A DNA stretch of 64,000 nt from Clostridiaceae bacterium (GCA_012518025.1 JAAYTP010000008.1:9303-73302); one strand, 5' to 3'. Shown: positions 9,552-25,681, numbered from the stretch's first letter. Translations and numbers: made by a program. Notes: generated from the sequence alone by a model not told the origin.

Positions 9552-10313
9552 ATGAATATGACAAGACTGATTTCATGGAATGTAAATGGCTTAAGAGCTG
9601 CTATAGGGAAAGGATTTCTGGATTTCTTGGACAGCAAATCTCCAGATATATTATGCCTTCAGGAGATCAAACTGAGCGAGGGGCAGTTGGATCTGGAGTT
9701 GGAGGGATATACCCTCTATTTCAACTATGCAGAGAAAAAGGGCTATTCCGGAACCGCTATTTTCACAAAAAAGCAGCCTCTGAAGGTATCCTATGGAATG
9801 GGGATGGAAGAGCATGACAGGGAAGGGAGAATGATCACCCTCGAATTTGACGATTACTATCTGGTGAATATCTATACCCCCAACTCCCAGAGAGGTCTGG
9901 AGAGGCTTCCCTACAGGATGATATGGGAAGATGATTTAAGAAACTACCTCTTATCGCTGGATGCCCATAAGCCTGTCATATTCTGTGGGGATCTCAATGT
10001 AGCCCATAAGGAGATTGATCTTAAAAACCCAAAATCCAATGTAAAGAATGCGGGTTTTACCCCTGAGGAAAGAAGCAAGATGACCCAGCTTCTCGAATCG
10101 GGATTTATAGATACCTTCCGCCATTTCTATCCTGACAGAACCGATGCCTATACCTGGTGGTCCTATATGTTCAAGGCAAGAGAAAAGAATGTGGGGTGGC
10201 GTATCGACTATTTCTGTGTATCGGAAAGATTCAAGTCAAGGCTTGTGGACGCTGCCATATTGTCCGATGTCTATGGCTCTGATCATTGTCCTGTGGAACT
10301 GATTATCGAATAA
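9552..10313 (+). CDS. xth: exodeoxyribonuclease III (AP endonuclease)
   Basis: 253 aa. Motifs: [23 protein letters not shown] and GSDHCPV. Confidence 0.9.
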
Positions 10314-10950
10314 GCCCGATTCCTGCCAGCAGTATCAGAATCAGGGACGGAAGGTATTTGGCTAATGAAGAGGATGGTTTATTTACAAATCTCATTCCCA
10401 GTTTTCCGCCTATGATGAGGCCTGCCAGTTGACCAATACTCAGCGCTACAGGAAAGAGGATTGTGTTCTGTCCTATAAGGGCGCTGCACAGAATTAAGCC
10501 CACCGAGTCCAATGTCAGGGCAACGGACAGAAGAATGGATTCCAGGGGATCTATCCTGCCCGATTGGTCTATATCAGCTTCCGATGGATACTTTAGCACC
10601 TGGATGGTGATGCCGGCTGATTTCAGAACAAGTTTGAAGAGTGTTCTTGGTGTTGTATCGATAAGATCACTCTTTTTTTTGTGCTTTGGTTTACTGTCCA
10701 ATAAGGTTGTGAGCAGCATGAATAATCCCATTATGGCAAGAATGATCTGCCCTAAAATCTCAGCAAGGCCTGATGGAATGAATTTTGTAAGTGAGGCCGA
10801 AGCCAGTTCTGAGATACAGCCAACAACCAGAGCCGTAATAAAGATAAGGAACTTCGAAACAAAGGGGATACGGATCCCTCTGGCTGAATAGGACATACCC
10901 GCCAGAACACAGTCAAAGCTCGAAATGAGGGTCATAACCAGTATCCACAT
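10303..10950 (-). CDS. ytaF: sporulation membrane protein YtaF-like (MntP/DUF204 superfamily)
   Basis: 215-aa polytopic ORF with N-terminus [20 protein letters not shown]. Its 3' end overlaps the convergent xth gene by 11 nt. Confidence 0.65.
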
Positions 10951-13993: not shown

Positions 13994-14740
13994 GTGATCG
14001 TTGTGCTTTCAATAAAAAATGTTTCCAAGAGCTATGCAAAGGGAAAGGTAAAGGCTGTCGACGATATTTCTCTTGAGGTAAGGCCAGGAGAAATTTTTGG
14101 GTTTTTAGGACCCAATGGTGCTGGAAAAACAACCACCATCAAGATGATTACCGGGGTACTTCCCATCGATACGGGAACCATAAATGTTAACGGACATGAT
14201 ATTGATAAGGATCCCATAAAAGCCAAGATGAGCATGGGCTATGTACCCGATACCCATGATATCTATGACCGGCTTACCGGCATTGAATACCTGAATTTCA
14301 TTGCGGATGTCTATGAGGTATCCCGTAAAGAACGGAAGCAGAACATAGAAAAGTACCTGGATATGTTCGAGATGAAGCAGGCTGCTGGTCAACCCATCAA
14401 AAGCTATTCCCATGGTATGAAGCAGAAGATCATCCTTACCGGGGCGCTTCTTCATAACCCGCCTCTCTGGATCCTGGACGAACCCATGACCGGCCTGGAT
14501 CCCAAATCAGCACATCTGATGAAGGAGGAGATGAACAGGCATTGCCAAAAGGGATATACCGTTTTCTTCTCCACCCATGTTCTGGAGGTCGCAGAAAGGC
14601 TCTGTCACCGCATCGGCATTATCAACAAGGGCAGAATCATTGCCGTAGGGACCCTGGATGAGCTTCGCAGATCGGGGGACAAGTCGCTGGAGAGTATTTT
14701 CCTGGAGCTTACTGATGAAGGAAGTGCTGGCCATGAGTAA
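13994..14740 (+). CDS. ABC transporter ATP-binding protein (ABC-2 type)
   Basis: Walker A GPNGAGKTT, signature YSHGMKQK and Walker B LWILDEP. The start is GTG 13994 or GTG 14003. Confidence 0.85.
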   Translation: MIVVLSIKNVSKSYAKGKVKAVDDISLEVRPGEIFGFLGPNGAGKTTTIKMITGVLPIDTGTINVNGHDIDKDPIKAKMSMGYVPDTHDIYDRLTGIEYLNFIADVYEVSRKERKQNIEKYLDMFEMKQAAGQPIKSYSHGMKQKIILTGALLHNPPLWILDEPMTGLDPKSAHLMKEEMNRHCQKGYTVFFSTHVLEVAERLCHRIGIINKGRIIAVGTLDELRRSGDKSLESIFLELTDEGSAGHE

Positions 14741-16409
14741 GTTTTTAAGTCTCCTGAAACTGCAGATAAATTCCCGGTTTGGGCTCTCCATGGCCAGGTA
14801 TAACTTTAGAAACGATAAAAAAGAGTTATGGAAGGCCGCAGGGCTTACTTTCATTATTGTTATTGCCCTGGGACAGGTTGTCTTTCTCTATAGCTATATC
14901 ATGCAAAGGTTATATATGGCGGCACAGTTGCTGAACTCGCCCCAGTTGATCCTTACTATGGGAGCGTCGGCTGCCGGACTGCTCATTCTTTTTTTCGGTA
15001 TATTCTATATACTGGGAGCCTTGTTTCTTGCCAGGGATACCGAGTTTCTGGCCTCCCTGCCCCTTAAGCAGAACAGCATATTCCTGTCCAAATTCATATT
15101 GGTTCTTTTGGGAGAGTACCCCATTGCCCTATTCTTGATGCTACCTCCCGTAATAATCTACGGAGCAGGGGCTCAGAAGGGTATTCTCTATTATATTACA
15201 GCTCTGATATGCATTCTTTTTCTGCCCATAGTACCCCTTATCATATCCTCGTTGCTGTCTTTGTGCCTTATGCACATTGTAAGCCGTTCAAAAAGAAGGG
15301 ATCTCATCATCATCGTGGGTTCCATCATCTTGTTTTTGGCTCTATTTGTGGGGCAGAATCTTCTTTTGTCCCGGATGCCCGAGAGCGGAACGGAAATGGA
15401 GTTTCTTCTCGAGATCCTGCAAAGGAGCGACGGGCTGGTTGAATGGTCGGGAAGGATATTCCCGCCCTCGGTATGGATCACCAAAGCTCTCTCCCATACA
15501 GGGGCGGAAGCCTTAAAGAACCTTGGATATCTTGTTCTTTTGTCGGTTGTCTCCTTCATACCCGTTTGGCTTCTTGCCTCGCTGATCTATCAAAGAGGGG
15601 CGTCTGCGCAACTGGAAGCTGAAAAAAGAACTATCAAAAGAAAACTGACCTATAAAGGCTCATCACCCATCATGGTCATTTTTAAGAATGAGTGGAAGAT
15701 GATCCTCAGAACCCCTGTATATGCTCTCAACTCTTTGATTGGGATAATTGTCGGACCGGTGATCATGGCTATGCCGCTCTTTGGAGGCAGCTTTGCTCAG
15801 GATCCTGATTTGCAGGCAATTTCTTCACTCATCGACCAATTCGGTTCATCCCCTGCACAGGTTTTGATTCTGTCGGGTATCTTAGTCCTGTTCGGATCAT
15901 TTAATGCTGCAGTTTCCAGCACCTACTCCCGGGAGGGGAAATCACTGTGGATCCTGAAGAGCATCCCGGTTAAGCCCCAAACCCAGGCTGCGGGAAAGCT
16001 GTTGGCGGGATACTCCATATCACTGCTCTGTGTTATTACCACCTCGCTGGCTATGGTATTTGCCCTGCGACTGAGCTTTGGCCTTTGGTTGTCCAGTGTT
16101 GTTCTCAGCGCTGCAGCGCTTTTTCCCATATGCCTTTCGGGAACGCTCATCGATCTTATCAGGCCCAAACTACATTGGAACAATCCCACCGAAGCCATCA
16201 AGCAAAACTTTAATGTGGTCTTGGGTATGCTGGCCGGAGTTATCATCATTATGGTTCTGGTTGCTCTTTGCTATGGTTTCCTCCAGCTTCAAATGAGCCC
16301 CGTTTTTCTCTATGGTCTTGTAGTCCTTATATTGGCAGCCTTATCCTGGGCAGGTATAAGTATTTTAAGGAAAGCCGCAGTTCGGGCTTACAGAAGACTG
16401 GAGGGCTGA
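14733..16409 (+). CDS. large polytopic ABC-exporter permease partner
   Basis: The start ATG at 14733 overlaps the ATPase stop (ATGA). The ~558-aa product has many hydrophobic helices. The family assignment rests only on genetic coupling to the ATPase gene. Confidence 0.6.
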   Translation: MSKFLSLLKLQINSRFGLSMARYNFRNDKKELWKAAGLTFIIVIALGQVVFLYSYIMQRLYMAAQLLNSPQLILTMGASAAGLLILFFGIFYILGALFLARDTEFLASLPLKQNSIFLSKFILVLLGEYPIALFLMLPPVIIYGAGAQKGILYYITALICILFLPIVPLIISSLLSLCLMHIVSRSKRRDLIIIVGSIILFLALFVGQNLLLSRMPESGTEMEFLLEILQRSDGLVEWSGRIFPPSVWITKALSHTGAEALKNLGYLVLLSVVSFIPVWLLASLIYQRGASAQLEAEKRTIKRKLTYKGSSPIMVIFKNEWKMILRTPVYALNSLIGIIVGPVIMAMPLFGGSFAQDPDLQAISSLIDQFGSSPAQVLILSGILVLFGSFNAAVSSTYSREGKSLWILKSIPVKPQTQAAGKLLAGYSISLLCVITTSLAMVFALRLSFGLWLSSVVLSAAALFPICLSGTLIDLIRPKLHWNNPTEAIKQNFNVVLGMLAGVIIIMVLVALCYGFLQLQMSPVFLYGLVVLILAALSWAGISILRKAAVRAYRRLEG

Positions 16410-16455: not shown

Positions 16456-16489
16456 AAAAAGGGAAGCCTCGGCTTCCCACTTTCTTTTG
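16456..16489 (+). terminator. intrinsic terminator after the ABC pair
   Basis: GGGAAGC-CTCG-GCTTCCC followed by ACTTTCTTTTG. Confidence 0.6.
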
Positions 16490-16620
16490 CGGCTATACTG
16501 CTAAAATGAAAAAACACAGTTTTAGAGCCCTATATTGACTTTACAGGTTTTGTCATGTAGTTTTATTATTATAAAGGAAGGCCAGATATTGGCTATTTGG
16601 AGTTTTGGGTGGGCAGGCAT

Positions 16621-19617
16621 ATGCAAGAAAATGAGATCTATAAATATGATGCGTTTATCAGCTACCGTCATACTGAGCCCGATAAGGCAATAGCAGAGAA
16701 GTTACATAGGATGCTGGAAAGCTTCAAGGTTCCCAAAAGCCTGATCAAAAAAGGCAGCCAAAAGAAAGTGGGTAGAGTCTTTCGTGATCGTGAAGAACTT
16801 CCAACCTCTTCGAACCTGGCAGACAACATCACCGAAGCCCTGACCAGTTCCGAACATCTCATTGTTATTTGTTCGCCCAGAACACCCCAATCAAAATGGG
16901 TGATGAAAGAGATTGAAACTTTTTCCAAGCTTCATGGTCAAGATCGAATCCTCGCTCTCCTCATAGAAGGGGAGCCCTATGAATCCTTTCCCGAACCCCT
17001 GCGCTTTGTCAAACGGCAGGTGGTGGGTGAGGATGGTAGCATTGAAGAAGTGACTGAAGAGGTCGAACCGCTGGCGGCCGATATCCGGGCTGACAGCCTG
17101 GGAAAGATGAAGAAAAAGCTCAAGGTGGAGATTTTACGGCTTTTGGCTCCTATCCTAAACTGCCGTTTCGACGACTTAAGGCAACGCCACAGGGAACGAA
17201 CCATCAAGCGGATTCTGTCGCTGTCCATATCCCTTTCCCTGTTTTTTCTGGGCTTTGGATCCTTTAGTGCCTGGCAGGCCTGGCAGATCAAGCAAAAATC
17301 CATTCTCCTTGAACAACAGGTGCAAAAGACACTTGAAGGGCAGTCCCTATATATGGCCAATATTTCAGGGCAACTCCTTGCAGAGGGAGACCGCAGAACA
17401 GCCATCATGGTGGCAAGAGAGGCTCTGCCGGCCGATTTGGATAACCCTGAGCGTCCCTATGTAGAAGAAGCCGAATATGCCCTGGGTCAGGCTTTACAGG
17501 TCTACAAAACCGATAACCGGTTCCTGCCGGATATCGCACTAAAGCATGCTAATGCAGTTAATTTCATCAAGCTGAGTTTCGATGGAAAAACCGCCGTTAC
17601 ATCGGCCAAGGATGGCTACCTGTATGTATGGGAAACCCAGCATGGGGACTTACTCGGGAAGCATTTTATCGGAGATAAATATCTAGGTAAGGACAAACTG
17701 GATTTTATCGATGACAGAACCATCGTCTATGTTACCGGCGGCATTTTAACATGTATGGATCTTGATACTATGGAGGCAAAATGGCAGTATGATGAGTATA
17801 CCTCCTACATTAAATTCTGTTCGGACCGCAAAGGCGTGGCTGCGGTCAGCAGCAGTGCTGTTGCTTTATTGGATGCGCAGACCGGCAATGCGCTTTTCAA
17901 GCAGTCCATAAATGACTATCTGGAAGGTGAGGGATTTGTCTCTGTCACAAGCCTGGCTATGGATGGTTCAGGCCGCTATCTCTGTGTGGGAACCAATTCC
18001 GGTCAGGTTCTTCTTTTTGACCTGAATAGTCATCGCTTATTATACGACTATAGGGTTGATAACCAACAAATTAACGATGTGGCTCTTTCCGACGGTGTTC
18101 TGGCAGTAGCATCCAGCAATTTCTCCCTTGAATCTCTTAACCTTCTTTCAAAAGGGGAAGGCAGACTGGATGTCTTCGACTTTAACGGTTACAGGCTTAT
18201 AGAGAGGGATTTCGACTACTCCAGCATTTCTGATCTGGCGTTCTCACCCTATGATGAGAACATGCTTATCTTTGTGGAAAGCGAAAAGATCAATGTTTTA
18301 GATGTTTCTGAGAACAAGATTTTGTATACCTTCATCAACGGCGGTAATATCACCGATTACATCATATGGGACGGGTTCGTGGTAACATCGTCCTATGATG
18401 GTTCCATTCGCTTCTGGGTTATGGATGATATAGGCTGGGAGTATTTTCCCGGAAGGATTGAGCTTTCCCGGGGCATCAACAATTTTATTGTCAGTTCAGG
18501 TGTTGTAGCGGCTTCCTGTGACCACTCCAATAAAGCAGTCATTCTCAGAGATTTACAAAATGAAGATATTATTAGACTGGCGGGCCATAATGATTCGGTT
18601 TACAGGTGCAGCTTTAGTCCCGATGGCAGCAGGCTCCTTTCCTATACCTCCAGCAGGGGAGAAATTGCTGTTTGGGATTGGGAAAACAAAGAGCTTACAG
18701 GCTTGATCGATACCGGCGGCAATCTTACCTATGCCTGCTTCGTTGACGATGGCAGTAAGATATTCACCACAAACCTGGAAGGTCAGGTCTCGGTATATGA
18801 TGCACAGACCATGGAAGTTATAACCCAGAAAACCAACGACTACAGTGTTGACAGAAAACACATCAGTTCCGATGGTTCTCTTTGTGTGTTAAGAACCTGG
18901 GATAATCTTCAGATTATACGCACCAAGGATTTAAGCCCTGTGGCTGAGATAGATACCACTGTGTTTGGAGCAGTCATTTTCTACGATCAAAACAGCAGGG
19001 TTATCTTAAGCTCACCCTATGATGACACGAAGGTTTATAGCACCAAATCCGGCAAGGAACTCTTTACATTTCCGCAGAAGGAGATAAGGGATATTGCCAT
19101 AAGTGACAGCAGCAAAACACTTGCTGCAATCTACCCGGACAACAGTATACGGCTTGTGGATTCCCAAAGCTTTGAAGAGCGTTTCGTCCTCAATGATTTT
19201 GACATAGCGGCATTGAAGGTGATATTTGATGCCGAGGGCAGGTATCTGTTTGTAAGCTTGGATGACTACAGTCTGCGCTGTTATGATGCCCAATCCGGAA
19301 AGCTGCTGGCCGAACTTAAGGGTATGTCTCAAGTTGCCTCAAATGTTATTTTCGACAACAGCAGAACCTTACTTATAACTCAGGGTGAAAGCGCTGAGGC
19401 CATTATCTGGCGATGGGAAAACAAGAAGAAGCTGAGCTATATGGATCGTCTGATCGAGGTTTCGCCCGATTTCAAAACGCTTATCAGCAGTCATAATAAC
19501 GAACTTCTCCTGATGCCCTTCTACGATACCCGAATGCTGGTGGAGATGGCCGAGAGGCAGCTTGACGGAAGAACCCTTTCGGACAGGGACAGGACTGATC
19601 TGTTTATCTCAAAATAA
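16621..19617 (+). CDS. TIR domain - single TM helix - large WD40-like beta-propeller protein
   Basis: TIR hallmarks: YDAFISYRH, HLIVICSP and SKWVMKEIE. A basic stretch RQRHRERTIKR precedes the helix ILSLSISLSLFFLGFGSFSAW. About 775 aa of repeats of the type SFDGKTAVTSAKDGYLYVWE and SFSPDGSRLLSYTSSRGEIAVWDWE follow. I prefer ATG 16621 to the track's TTG 16597. Confidence 0.8.
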   Translation: MQENEIYKYDAFISYRHTEPDKAIAEKLHRMLESFKVPKSLIKKGSQKKVGRVFRDREELPTSSNLADNITEALTSSEHLIVICSPRTPQSKWVMKEIETFSKLHGQDRILALLIEGEPYESFPEPLRFVKRQVVGEDGSIEEVTEEVEPLAADIRADSLGKMKKKLKVEILRLLAPILNCRFDDLRQRHRERTIKRILSLSISLSLFFLGFGSFSAWQAWQIKQKSILLEQQVQKTLEGQSLYMANISGQLLAEGDRRTAIMVAREALPADLDNPERPYVEEAEYALGQALQVYKTDNRFLPDIALKHANAVNFIKLSFDGKTAVTSAKDGYLYVWETQHGDLLGKHFIGDKYLGKDKLDFIDDRTIVYVTGGILTCMDLDTMEAKWQYDEYTSYIKFCSDRKGVAAVSSSAVALLDAQTGNALFKQSINDYLEGEGFVSVTSLAMDGSGRYLCVGTNSGQVLLFDLNSHRLLYDYRVDNQQINDVALSDGVLAVASSNFSLESLNLLSKGEGRLDVFDFNGYRLIERDFDYSSISDLAFSPYDENMLIFVESEKINVLDVSENKILYTFINGGNITDYIIWDGFVVTSSYDGSIRFWVMDDIGWEYFPGRIELSRGINNFIVSSGVVAASCDHSNKAVILRDLQNEDIIRLAGHNDSVYRCSFSPDGSRLLSYTSSRGEIAVWDWENKELTGLIDTGGNLTYACFVDDGSKIFTTNLEGQVSVYDAQTMEVITQKTNDYSVDRKHISSDGSLCVLRTWDNLQIIRTKDLSPVAEIDTTVFGAVIFYDQNSRVILSSPYDDTKVYSTKSGKELFTFPQKEIRDIAISDSSKTLAAIYPDNSIRLVDSQSFEERFVLNDFDIAALKVIFDAEGRYLFVSLDDYSLRCYDAQSGKLLAELKGMSQVASNVIFDNSRTLLITQGESAEAIIWRWENKKKLSYMDRLIEVSPDFKTLISSHNNELLLMPFYDTRMLVEMAERQLDGRTLSDRDRTDLFISK

Positions 19618-23106: not shown

Positions 23107-23200
23107 CCTCAAAGCTCTTCTTGCACTCTCATTTCCTACCTCCCACATCCCACCTCTAAAAGGTGAGATTGCTTCGTCGTCTCCGACTCCTCGCAATGAC
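23107..23200 (+). repeat. dispersed intergenic repeat, copy A (core plus right arm)
   Basis: Aligns by eye almost base for base with 60134..60225 (CCTCAAAGC...CCTCCCACATCC.ACCTCTAAAA..GAGATTGCTTCGTCG...CTCCTCGCAATGAC). It lies between convergent gnd and galM. Confidence 0.7.
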
Positions 23201-23210
23201 ACGAAGGGTT

Positions 23211-24266
23211 TTACCTTGCCCCGAATTTGTAGATGGTGATATGGTGATAGACCTCACCCGCTCTGAGAATGGGCGAGGGGAAGTGGGTATGCTTCATGGA
23301 ATTTGGGAAGTACTGGGTTTCCAGGCACAGCCCGCTGTGTTTTTTATAATCTGCTCCTCCCTTTCCCTTTTCATTCAGGTGGTTGCCTGTATAGAACTGC
23401 ACTCCGGGCTTGGTGGTGTAGACCTCCATAAACCGGCCGCTTTGAGGGTCATAAACTTCGGCGGCTTTTTCCGGTTCCTTCCCACTCACATCAAGAACAA
23501 AGTTATGGTCATAGCCGCTTCCAAACTTCATCTGTTCATCGTTCATGCATTCAAGCAGGCCCTTCCCGACGACCCTCATCTTTGTAAAGTCAAAAGGAGT
23601 ACCTGCCACATCCCGGATCTCTCCTGTGGGCAGGCATTCACCGGATATAGGAGTGAACCTGCGGGCATTGATCATCAGTTCGTGATGGTAAATGGTGCCG
23701 GAATCATGACCGGACAGATTGAAATATGCGTGGTTAGTAAGGTTGACCACCGTATCCTTGTCCGATACCGCATGGTAGTCGATAACCAGCTCATTATTAT
23801 CGCTAAGGGTATAGGTTACTGTTACATCCAGATTGCCCGGATAATTCTCTTCCATATCCGGGCTCAGATATTTCAGCCGGAGACTTTCCCGTCCGGAATC
23901 GCTGATTATTTCGGAGAACCATACCTTTTTATCAAAGCCCACGAGTCCGCCGTGGAGCTGGTTGTTTCCCTCATTGCTGTTGAGCTCATAAAATACATCG
24001 TTGATGGTAAAGGACGCATCTTCCAGCCTGTTGGCGTGACGTCCGATGATGGCGCCAAAGAATGGGTGAGGGCGGGTATAATCCTCAAAACTATCGAAGC
24101 CCAGTGTGATATCCTTAAGGTTTCCATCCCTGTCCGGTGCATGGAGTGATACTATAATGCCTCCGTAGTCCATGATTTCTGCCTTCATGCCGTTGTTGTT
24201 CACCAGTGAATAAAGATAAATATCCTGGTTATTAATTCTCCCAAAAGGTTTTTTGGTGATTTTCAT
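23211..24266 (-). CDS. galM: aldose 1-epimerase (galactose mutarotase)
   Basis: 351 aa. Motifs: GAIIGRHANR, NQLHGG, TNHAYFNL and CLETQ. Confidence 0.88.
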   Translation of the reverse strand: MKITKKPFGRINNQDIYLYSLVNNNGMKAEIMDYGGIIVSLHAPDRDGNLKDITLGFDSFEDYTRPHPFFGAIIGRHANRLEDASFTINDVFYELNSNEGNNQLHGGLVGFDKKVWFSEIISDSGRESLRLKYLSPDMEENYPGNLDVTVTYTLSDNNELVIDYHAVSDKDTVVNLTNHAYFNLSGHDSGTIYHHELMINARRFTPISGECLPTGEIRDVAGTPFDFTKMRVVGKGLLECMNDEQMKFGSGYDHNFVLDVSGKEPEKAAEVYDPQSGRFMEVYTTKPGVQFYTGNHLNEKGKGGADYKKHSGLCLETQYFPNSMKHTHFPSPILRAGEVYHHITIYKFGAR

Positions 24267-24499: not shown

Positions 24500-25681
24500 A
24501 TGATTCAAAAAACCTATTCTATCGGCGGCGAGCATGATATACCGGTGGGTCCTCTTGGGATCATCCCCATGCAGGGAACCCATGAACTCGCAATGCTGGT
24601 GAACAAGCACCTGGTAACAAAGAGGAAGAGCTTGTTTTCCGAGGAAAACAGTCTGAGTCAGCACTATTTGAAGGAATCCTATATAATTTCTGCATCCTGC
24701 CCCAGATTCAGTACTGGTGACGGTAAGGGTGTCATAAACGAATCTGTGCGCGGCTACGATATTTATATCATTTCGGATGTGGGAAATTATAGCTGCACAT
24801 ATAAGATGTTTGGCCAGGAATGCCGCATGAGCCCCGATGACCATTTTCAGGATATTAAAAGGATCATTTCTGCCATAGGCGGGAAGGCCAGAAGGATAAA
24901 TCTGATCATGCCCCTGCTGTATGCGGGAAGACAGCATAAACGCGTCTCCAGAGAGTCACTGGACTGTGCCATAGCCCTTCAGGAATTTGAGGATCTTGGG
25001 GTGGAGAACATCATCACCTTTGATGCTCATGATCCGAGGGTACAGAATGCCATACCAATTAAGGGTTTTGAGAATATCCTGCCCACCTATCAGATAATAA
25101 AAGCTCTTGTAAGGAGCGAACCCGATCTTAGGATAGACAAATCCGGCATGATGGTTATCAGTCCCGACGAGGGCGGACTTTCCAGAAACATCTATTATGC
25201 CAACGTACTGGGTCTTGATCTGGGGATGTTCTATAAACGCCGTGATGTGACCAGGCTGGTTAATGGGAAGAACCCCATCATAAGCCATGAGTTCCTGGGC
25301 GATTCGGTTGAAGGGAAAAGCGTCCTGATCATTGACGACATCCTATCCTCCGGAGACTCCATTCTGGATATAGTAAAGGAACTGAAGAAGCGAAAGGCTG
25401 CAAACATCTATGTGGGTGTCACCTTCGCCCTTTTCACAGAGGGACTGGATAAGTTTCATGATCTGTATGAGCGGGGTATGCTGAACAGAGTATTCTCCAC
25501 AAACCTGACATACAGGAAGGAAGAACTGAAAAAAGCCCCCTGGTACGTGGAGGTTGATATATCTAAGTTTATAGCTCTGCTGATCAACACCCTCAACCAT
25601 GACTCCTCCTTAAGTTCTCTTCTGGATCCTACAGAAAAAATTCGTTCCCTTATGGAGCGTCGCAATGCTGCAAAAAATTAG
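24500..25681 (+). CDS. prs: ribose-phosphate pyrophosphokinase, long form
   Basis: 393 aa. Motifs: the YAGRQHKR loop, FDAHDP, MVISPDEGG and the PRPP-binding loop VLIIDDILSSGDS. RBS GGAGGA. Confidence 0.85.
   Translation: MIQKTYSIGGEHDIPVGPLGIIPMQGTHELAMLVNKHLVTKRKSLFSEENSLSQHYLKESYIISASCPRFSTGDGKGVINESVRGYDIYIISDVGNYSCTYKMFGQECRMSPDDHFQDIKRIISAIGGKARRINLIMPLLYAGRQHKRVSRESLDCAIALQEFEDLGVENIITFDAHDPRVQNAIPIKGFENILPTYQIIKALVRSEPDLRIDKSGMMVISPDEGGLSRNIYYANVLGLDLGMFYKRRDVTRLVNGKNPIISHEFLGDSVEGKSVLIIDDILSSGDSILDIVKELKKRKAANIYVGVTFALFTEGLDKFHDLYERGMLNRVFSTNLTYRKEELKKAPWYVEVDISKFIALLINTLNHDSSLSSLLDPTEKIRSLMERRNAAKN

Follow-up and report, generated by a model that had tools for sequence, protein, structure and literature searches.

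In the enzymatic TIR families of bacteria, such as ThsB of the Thoeris system, AbTir and the TIR-APAZ protein of SPARTA, activity depends on oligomerisation, and to our knowledge all bacterial TIR systems known so far sense intracellular events. In Toll-like receptors (TLRs), one transmembrane (TM) helix stands between a large repeat ectodomain and a cytoplasmic TIR domain. Proteins of the STAND/Avs type carry a NACHT- or NB-ARC-type P-loop NTPase between the effector and the repeats, and Apaf-1 and the STAND-WD40 and TIR-STAND-WD40 sensors join an N-terminal effector to a double propeller of about 7 + 8 blades as the presumed C-terminal sensor. Here we describe a gene at positions 16621-19617, plus strand, of a 64,000-nt stretch of DNA (hereafter the window) from a Clostridiaceae bacterium (GCA_012518025.1 JAAYTP010000008.1:9303-73302), which encodes a TIR domain followed by a predicted TM helix and a double WD40 propeller (TIR-TM-WD40). 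The protein is a member of a very large family, catalogued but uncharacterised, and this family has a conserved partner, a DHH-DHHA1 phosphoesterase. An earlier interpretation made from the window alone (the sequence-only reading) had seen in the gene a receptor-like TIR protein, and the receptor-like interpretation is the best supported, with the architecture as first described. That reading knew of no characterised system of such architecture, and we likewise found no published description of the TIR-TM-WD40 architecture or of a TIR-DHH pair; the DHH adjacency across the TIR family is new here.

The plus strand is open from 16597 to 19617, and the product read from the ATG at 16621 is 998 residues long. 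It is identical to the database protein P0001 (MDI9514709.1/NLI37813.1), which is present on 231 contigs and bears in the database only the names "TIR domain-containing protein" or "WD40 repeat protein". The gene encodes a genuine bacterial TIR/TM/double-propeller protein, and every sequence feature that the sequence-only reading had described in it was found in its place. The features, all on the plus strand, are the following, with the basis of each in brackets (HMM, hidden Markov model; AF2, AlphaFold2):

16621..19617, plus strand: whole gene, 998 codons plus stop, with an alternative TTG start at 16597
16645..17004, plus strand: TIR core, residues 9-128, betaA to alphaD (HMM matches, alignment, AF2, Foldseek)
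16909..16911, plus strand: codon GAG of Glu97, candidate catalytic residue in S91-x-W93-x-x-x-E97 (alignment with L6, invariance)
17005..17154, plus strand: family-specific beta-hairpin insert (residues 129-147), strand betaE (invariant E149/L151/A153/D154/R156, "EPLAADIR") and helix alphaE (residues 160-178) (alignment, AF2)
17155..17211, plus strand: pre-membrane helix with basic RQRHRERTIKR; D184, L186 and R189 invariant (hydropathy, alignment, charge count)
17212..17283, plus strand: predicted single TM helix, residues 198-221; F212-G213 conserved in at least 90% of homologues (hydropathy, alignment, AF2)
17284..17505, plus strand: juxtamembrane helices, residues 222-295, conserved ("ALEALP..PDRPYV.EAEYAL"), predicted outside (alignment, AF2)
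17506..19518, plus strand: about 15 WD40 blades in two propellers, residues 296-966, fast-diverging (HMMs, AF2, Foldseek)
19519..19614, plus strand: C-terminal helical tail, conserved ("P.Y..ML..EA..QL.GR.LT..EK..FI") (alignment, AF2)

Residues 9-125 or thereabouts had been recognised as a TIR domain, and both profile and fold comparisons agree: in the Pfam scan residues 12-119 matched TIR_2 (44 bits, cut-off 28) and ThsB_TIR (38.3 bits, cut-off 21.2), and an AF2 model of the N-terminal 200 residues, with a predicted local distance difference test (pLDDT) score of 82, retrieved in Foldseek the TIR domains of RPP1, SARM1, TIR-1, RUN1, TLR15, SPARTA, AbTir, ThsB and TLRs, with probability 1.0 for RPP1, SARM1, TLR15, RUN1, SPARTA, AbTir and ThsB. 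TLR TIR domains were among the best matches in sequence as well as in fold. The predicted structure is a five-strand flavodoxin-like TIR fold that superposes on solved TIR domains, with betaE at residues 151-154. Of the more than 3,000 homologues that received a score, the top 120 served to locate the membrane helix, and 104 sequences were aligned; in the aligned set F12, S14, Y15, H17, D56, C84, S91 and E97 of the TIR core are invariant and W93 is conserved in at least 90%. In the sequence alignment "SKWVMKEI" of the window protein is paired with "SKWCLMEL" of L6, so that E97 lies opposite the L6 Glu, which we take to be the catalytic residue of plant TIR NADases. The proposal that the Glu four residues after the Trp (codon 16909-16911) occupies the catalytic position thus agrees with the GAG codon, the L6 alignment and the invariance in 104 homologues. 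With this catalytic-type Glu the domain looks like a TIR of the enzymatic type, and by analogy with ThsB, AbTir and SPARTA its activity would be expected to depend on oligomerisation.

A hydropathy scan of the whole protein gave only one hydrophobic peak, at residues 198-221 (Kyte-Doolittle (KD) 1.77), directly after the basic RQRHRERTIKR, as the sequence-only reading had noted for nt 17212-17283. The same position is the top hydropathy peak in 119 of the 120 homologues, where the sequence drifts, the hydrophobic stretch measures 19-24 residues and KD reaches 2.46. Counted in 20-aa flanks, Lys and Arg average 6.3 on the N side of the helix and 3.4 on the C side, with N exceeding C in 99 of 104 sequences. 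In the AF2 model a continuous straight helix (residues 183-254) spans the hydrophobic segment, and confidence falls below 50 only at 199-215, as would be expected for a lipid-exposed helix that packs on nothing. No signal peptide was seen ahead of the TIR domain in the sequence of the 998-aa protein. Because a conserved hydrophobic helix and a charge bias are found together with this AF2 geometry, and no signal peptide precedes a folded N-terminal domain of about 195 residues, the protein probably adopts an N-in/C-out (type II) topology with the propellers outside the membrane; a TIR N-terminal domain needs cytoplasmic NAD+ (nicotinamide adenine dinucleotide). The positive-inside argument by which the TIR domain had been placed inside and the propellers outside is therefore supported as a prediction.

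The C-terminal part had been described as WD40-like repeats sufficient for two propellers, which is what the HMMs and the model give. Many WD40 and beta-propeller HMMs matched residues 310-945, approximately, in the Pfam scan (PF00400, 60.5 bits, cut-off 27), and those of the PQQ_2/BamB type matched too (42 bits, cut-off 27.6). The AF2 model made on the 104-sequence alignment (mean pLDDT 91.5) has 62 strands, equal to about 15 blades, between residues 301 and 966, preceded by two more helices up to residue 292 and followed by two C-terminal helices; in Foldseek the whole model matched tandem WD40 propellers, the best being Nostoc 2ymu, Apaf-1 3sfz/3shf and Utp21. No NTPase HMM matched the protein in the Pfam scan, and residues 129-295 are taken up in the model by the hairpin, helices and TM segment.

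The two halves of the protein have evolved at different rates. Mean identity to the window protein is 69% in the TIR core, 69% in the pre-membrane helix and 51% in the juxtamembrane helices, and 24% and 21% in propellers 1 and 2; the rate of divergence of the double propeller is about threefold that of the TIR cassette. Where identity over the whole protein drops to 27-30%, that of the N-terminal 230 aa is still 46-88%. The best 120 homologues are nearly all of about 1,000 aa. A search with the TIR + linker + TM cassette (residues 1-230) of 1.84 billion cluster representatives (clusters at 50% identity) found 2,717 at E<=1e-30, and at least 557 species genomes, one genome being scanned per species, encode a relative; the best 80 of these at least 557 carriers belong mostly to Lachnospiraceae, Butyrivibrio, Roseburia, Ruminiclostridium, Thermoclostridium and Oscillospiraceae. 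Annotations of family members are all generic. Because the cassette is also found fused to other C-terminal parts, a coiled coil + PDZ (PDZ in L009 and in P0296) or unassigned modules, it behaves like a cytoplasmic unit that can be moved between proteins and attached to differing C-terminal parts. These alternative C-terminal domains were considered as markers of topology and set aside, PDZ or unassigned domains not being diagnostic. A 2017 census counted just five WD40 proteins in 364 Firmicutes (PMC5587647), so that the clostridial family lies outside earlier WD40 surveys and alters the picture of WD40 proteins as nearly absent from Firmicutes.

Open reading frames (ORFs) were called in 91 loci of the family and the genes flanking the TIR gene, four per side, were clustered. 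A DHH-DHHA1 phosphoesterase of about 500 aa is adjacent to the TIR gene in 50 of the 91, the runner-up being the glutaminyl-tRNA synthetase (GlnRS) in 12, and the pair occurs in four arrangements:

30 loci: DHH gene upstream, same strand, gap mostly -35 to +60 nt
12 loci: DHH gene downstream, same strand, gap typically 5-39 nt
4 loci: DHH and TIR genes divergent
4 loci: DHH and TIR genes convergent

Stop and start codons of the two genes often overlap, with a 20-nt gene overlap in a Blautia genome. When TIR proteins are clustered at >=50% identity, the linkage is present in 34 of 62 clusters, and it spans Lachnospiraceae, Ruminiclostridium, Epulonipiscium, Cellulosilyticaceae, Oscillospiraceae and Defluviitalea. 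A DHH-DHHA1 phosphoesterase is thus the conserved partner of the family. From its sequence the DHH protein has the motifs DxD, DHH and GGGH and no evident hydrophobic segment; its nearest solved relatives are NrnA/Pde-type enzymes and TmPDE, and it reached the cut-off of no NCBIfam equivalog. The DHH and DHHA1 domains and the catalytic motifs are as in the NrnA/Pde2/GdpP-type phosphodiesterases, but the protein has an extra conserved C-terminal domain of about 190 aa, for which a PDB/Pfam profile search gave nothing significant, with weak PGDYG matches in 4 of 37 members. The statement that the gene has no known partner genes accordingly stands for the window, where tblastn found no DHH homologue in the 64 kb, and fails for the family. 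A DHH family member, P0255 (MDI9515271.1/NLI38142.1), comes from the same assemblies as P0001, in an adjacent accession series; the DHH protein is thus encoded in this genome, unlinked to the TIR gene.

The TIR gene of the window lies in a run that consists, in order, of a MutS2-like gene, an Exo/endo/phosphatase gene, a P-type ATPase gene, two ABC (ATP-binding cassette)-type genes, the TIR gene, an ABC exporter gene, a 6-phosphogluconate dehydrogenase gene and a gene resembling phosphoribosyl pyrophosphate (PRPP) synthetase, and farther out in the window are core-metabolism genes (isoleucyl-tRNA synthetase, glycogen genes, Fe-hydrogenase, GH43). A 72%-identical orthologue occurs in the same gene order (L001/L002). 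Across the family the contexts are likewise of the housekeeping kind, with purine biosynthesis genes, GlnRS, translation factors and transporters. As the sequence-only reading had reported for its surroundings, no SIR2, SLOG, Macro, STAND, nuclease or integrase gene is present within about 9 kb of the TIR gene, and no transposase or known defence gene was found near it. With regard to Thoeris, no ThsA gene (SIR2 or Macro/SLOG) was found within about 9 kb or among recurrent neighbours in the 91 loci; with regard to CBASS and Pycsar, the protein has no SAVED domain, and no cyclase gene is nearby at the locus or among recurrent neighbours in the same 91 loci. PADLOC models matched the protein through its TIR domain only (SAVED_TIR, 1.4e-8, confined to residues 10-115; PDC-S66, 0.0016). 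In a set of 147 neighbours, drawn from the two nearest non-DHH genes at each of 76 loci, a PADLOC family matched three proteins at most, and the matches were to generic models of the helix-turn-helix, ATPase and radical-SAM (S-adenosylmethionine) type. Membership in Thoeris, CBASS, Avs or another PADLOC system was therefore rejected, the matches being at the TIR level only and partner genes not being found. The survey of homologue neighbourhoods, which had been suggested as a way to find either defence islands or conserved partners, gave the conserved DHH partner, and housekeeping contexts instead of defence islands.

We propose, with moderate confidence, that the window protein is bitopic and receptor-like and translates a cue from outside the cytoplasm into NAD+-derived nucleotide chemistry by way of its TIR domain, the product being then processed by the DHH enzyme. 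The propellers, placed outside, would bind a variable ligand beyond the membrane, for example a macromolecule of the envelope, the cell surface or the environment; ligand-driven clustering would, through the TM helix and the short rigid linker, bring membrane-proximal TIR domains together; this assembly would complete an active site around Glu97, as in other enzymatic TIRs; the assembled TIR would cleave NAD+ or make an ADP-ribose-derived nucleotide; and the DHH enzyme would process or degrade that nucleotide, so that the signal is either ended or converted. Under this model the control logic would resemble that of a TLR or a bitopic receptor kinase, in which a variable ectodomain sets the assembly state of a membrane-proximal cytoplasmic domain. 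The housekeeping, syntenic contexts and the slow evolution of the TIR cassette suit a resident signalling pathway better than a mobile anti-phage module, and sensing of phage or competitors at the envelope is possible.

Several observations weigh against this proposal. G-beta-type WD40 propellers are typically cytoplasmic, the TM helix of the window protein, rich in Ser and alternating in the pattern LSLSISLSL, has no more than moderate hydrophobicity, and Cys makes up 1.1% of the residues after the helix and 1.3% before it, that is, without a drop. The helix pattern and the equal Cys content would suit an all-cytoplasmic protein in which the hydrophobic segment is a monotopic or peripheral anchor and the whole an Apaf-1/STAND-like intracellular sensor devoid of NTPase, as would the resemblance of the double propeller to Apaf-1 (TM-score 0.34-0.38) and the Nostoc WD40 protein and the true WD40 HMMs above threshold. 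We hold such a protein improbable, however, in view of a segment that keeps its hydrophobicity in all but one of 120 homologues despite sequence drift, a charge bias as consistent as that described above, and an AF2 model in which the segment is part of a straight helix separating the two halves; extracytoplasmic propellers exist, and the PQQ_2/BamB-type HMMs match as well. The Cys argument carries little weight, since cysteine is hardly excluded from the exported proteins of anaerobic Firmicutes (PMC2823432), and cysteine exclusion was dropped as a topology test, being uninformative in these bacteria.

Other difficulties concern the enzymatic activity and the partner. The closest tested relative found, the TIR domain of Bovatus_RS13830 from Bacteroides ovatus, gave no NADase product in a cell-free assay (PMC9092222). 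This protein is 31% identical to the window protein over 202 aa of the cassette with the Glu aligned, and it shares the cassette of TIR, betaE/alphaE, basic helix and TM segment, but it has no beta-hairpin insert, carries Tyr in place of W93 and has a C-terminal part without WD40 match. The segment assayed stops at "VQAENS", short of the helix equivalent to alphaE of the model, and isolated TIR domains often need assembly for activity; the result is thus weak negative evidence against an enzymatic TIR. As to the partner, the TIR and DHH genes are unlinked in this genome, three of five sampled DHH loci (L091, L093/94 and L096) have no TIR neighbour, a cassette protein being beside or near DHH in the other two (L092 and L095), and the DHH protein is at least 50% identical across orders; being so conserved and so often without a TIR neighbour, it may have an independent, wider housekeeping role. 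One could then suppose that the TIR domain is a non-enzymatic scaffold that recruits cytoplasmic partners, as in TLR/MyD88 adaptors, and that the DHH adjacency is synteny without functional meaning, which would agree with the B. ovatus result, with the Glu that TLR2 too has at the position aligned with E97, and with DHH loci that stand alone and are conserved like those of a housekeeping enzyme. The invariance of E97, S91 and C84 and the near-constancy of W93 argue otherwise, as does a DHH adjacency that persists in 34 of 62 lineages and in four gene orders amid changing neighbours, down to overlapping stop and start codons, and the B. ovatus construct was without alphaE; a scaffold therefore seems to us a doubtful explanation.

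The window-type copy is, moreover, dispensable, because the syntenic copy in Thermoclostridium caenicola DSM 19027 (L015:10001-11834) is a deletion remnant. What is left of it is residues 1-67 (81% identical) and, fused to them in a different frame, residues 453-998 (56% identical), so that it lacks the TM helix, half of the first propeller and the greater part of the TIR domain; an intact paralogue, P0031, remains in that species. Such a loss is what one might see with a single-gene abortive-infection or defence sensor whose outer propellers would detect phage adsorption, injection or envelope damage and whose TIR would deplete NAD+ to kill or arrest the cell, and single-gene defence systems exist. 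An intact catalytic-type Glu, closest folds that include the defence TIRs of SPARTA, ThsB and AbTir, the weak TIR-level PADLOC matches, the fast divergence of the sensor part and the tandem or multiple paralogues of some genomes (L003, L086, L011/L012) all speak for it. Yet the locus is syntenic core chromosome, lying between 6-phosphogluconate dehydrogenase and a set of MutS2, P-type ATPase and ABC genes, integrase and transposase genes were not found nearby, the TIR cassette evolves slowly, and what accompanies the TIR gene across the family encodes a phosphoesterase, which is no known effector. The failure of PADLOC families to recur among the neighbours, the matches being generic, removes the usual guilt-by-association argument for defence. 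The phage-sensing role entertained in the sequence-only reading thus found no defence-island signal to support it; a defence role for the TIR-TM-WD40 protein is possible but unsupported, and the abortive-infection sensor is in our estimate unlikely.

The bitopic receptor-like protein favoured here can be set against the described systems point by point. It is like ThsB, AbTir and SPARTA in its TIR fold and in the catalytic-type Glu after S-x-W, and the ThsB_TIR HMM is above threshold; unlike Thoeris and SPARTA, it comes without ThsA, Argonaute or another known partner, spans the membrane and carries a propeller part of about 775 aa, and in contrast to Thoeris, AbTir and SPARTA the usual neighbour of its family is a DHH phosphoesterase in housekeeping contexts. 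STAND/Avs proteins differ from it by the P-loop NTPase, which is also the difference from Apaf-1 and the STAND-WD40 and TIR-STAND-WD40 sensors; the N-terminal effector and the C-terminal tandem double propeller of these are as in the window protein, which likewise has roughly 7 + 8 blades and whose sensor, however, is predicted to be outside the cell. With TLRs it has in common the single TM helix between repeats and TIR, and it may share an outside-in logic acting through receptor clustering, whereas its TIR domain is N-terminal, is not preceded by a signal peptide, gives the protein the opposite polarity (type II), is joined to WD40 repeats instead of leucine-rich repeats, and is probably enzymatic. 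The TLR resemblance is an analogy, not common ancestry of architecture.

It is possible, and we offer this tentatively, that many Clostridia, including the abundant Lachnospiraceae of gut and rumen, possess a transmembrane outside-in TIR pathway in which WD40 propellers sense a ligand outside the cytoplasm and so activate a membrane-proximal TIR enzyme that makes an NAD+-derived second messenger; a DHH-DHHA1 phosphodiesterase, dedicated to the pathway and bearing a novel C-terminal domain, would then read or remove the messenger. If true, this would be a bacterial counterpart of TLR logic made from different parts and a new nucleotide second-messenger module; it would add surface sensing to bacterial TIR/NAD+ signalling, and the receptor-TM-TIR layout known from animal innate immunity would have arisen a further time, independently and by convergence. 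The family is found above all in Lachnospiraceae of gut and rumen, and the conserved DHH partner is a concrete biochemical handle on a TIR family. TIR-derived isomers of cyclic ADP-ribose have been detected in vivo for other TIR proteins in a gut setting (PMC9092222). In the stored text of supplementary file 2 of the same paper, the sequence of a "YDAFISYRH..." family member stands in the row of an unrelated Bacteroides dorei-like protein, and the activity labels cannot be tied to sequences; a gut-metagenome family member apparently labelled "Inactive" in that file was not used, the columns being out of register.

Two transcription signals lie upstream of the TIR gene:

16461..16488, plus strand: intrinsic terminator of the upstream ABC-type gene (hairpin 16461-16478 with 7-bp GC-rich stem and 4-nt loop, then a T-run)
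16540..16569, plus strand: promoter-like site TTTACA-18-TATTAT (10 of 12 consensus positions; consensus match only)

The terminator, which had been noticed before and is real, separates the TIR gene from the upstream operon. Promoter-like sites are no more numerous in the region than in shuffled sequence. No terminator was detected in the 150 nt between the TIR stop codon and the next gene (the ABC exporter, 19768), for which reason read-through into that gene is possible; monocistronic transcription, as in the earlier description, is likely. Rfam found no riboswitch or other RNA element in the TIR leader or in DHH-TIR operons. Upstream of the terminator, the ORF of an ABC ATPase (13994-14740) and one of the ABC_tran_2/12TM type (14658-16409) overlap by 83 nt in the window and by 8 nt in L001, and the true start of the 14658-16409 gene is probably farther downstream. 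The ORFs 23163-24149 (plus strand) and 10303-10950 (minus strand) of the window had no Pfam match. The PRPP-synthetase-like gene (393 aa, window 24500-25681) lies about 5 kb downstream of the TIR gene; it was considered as a partner and rejected, being present only in the window, L001 and L010 and not recurrent among neighbours.

Variants of the family and of its surroundings were seen at other loci. Tandem family paralogues occur at L003:6141-12524 and L086:4985-11104, and the metagenome-assembled genome OH_CDB_78 has two copies on separate contigs (L011 and L012), of which only L012 is DHH-linked. A shorter subfamily of about 830 aa resides in a stable block consisting of genes for IMP (inosine monophosphate) cyclohydrolase, an AICARFT-like protein, DHH, TIR, GlnRS and DUF2225, found in L095 and about ten Lachnospiraceae loci (e.g. 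L039, L053, L054, L066, L069, L070 and L075). In Defluviitalea saccharophila (CP121687.1, L092:6001-13476) the DHH gene is followed by a 162-aa ORF and then by two convergent TIR genes, one encoding a 778-aa protein of a different TIR subtype (TIR + hydrophobic segment + trypsin-like protease) and the other a 984-aa family member. At L091:6001-13494 (assigned to Methylomusa anaerophila) the DHH gene, there without TIR neighbour, is upstream of a sensor-rich set comprising a protein with an N-terminal signal-peptide-like hydrophobic segment, a Tricorn/PD40-type propeller protein with Calx-beta, and an nSTAND1-CHASE2 protein. A protein of about 490 aa with two N-terminal hydrophobic helices and a C-terminal RyR domain (weak Pfam match; L018:8514-10013) adjoins the TIR gene in five loci without DHH neighbour (L010, L018, L019, L025 and L028). 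It was considered as a divergent DHH and rejected, there being no similarity and only five loci, and since L010, L019 and L025 share two other neighbour families its recurrence may be plain synteny. At L009 a cassette protein with a long helical region and a C-terminal PDZ domain (17199-19058) is encoded about 4 kb from a TIR-TM-WD40 gene, and the contig also carries bpMoxR (MoxR-type ATPase, 149-1132), an M48 peptidase, zinc-ribbon proteins and a small RyR-domain ORF (L009:14860-15144).

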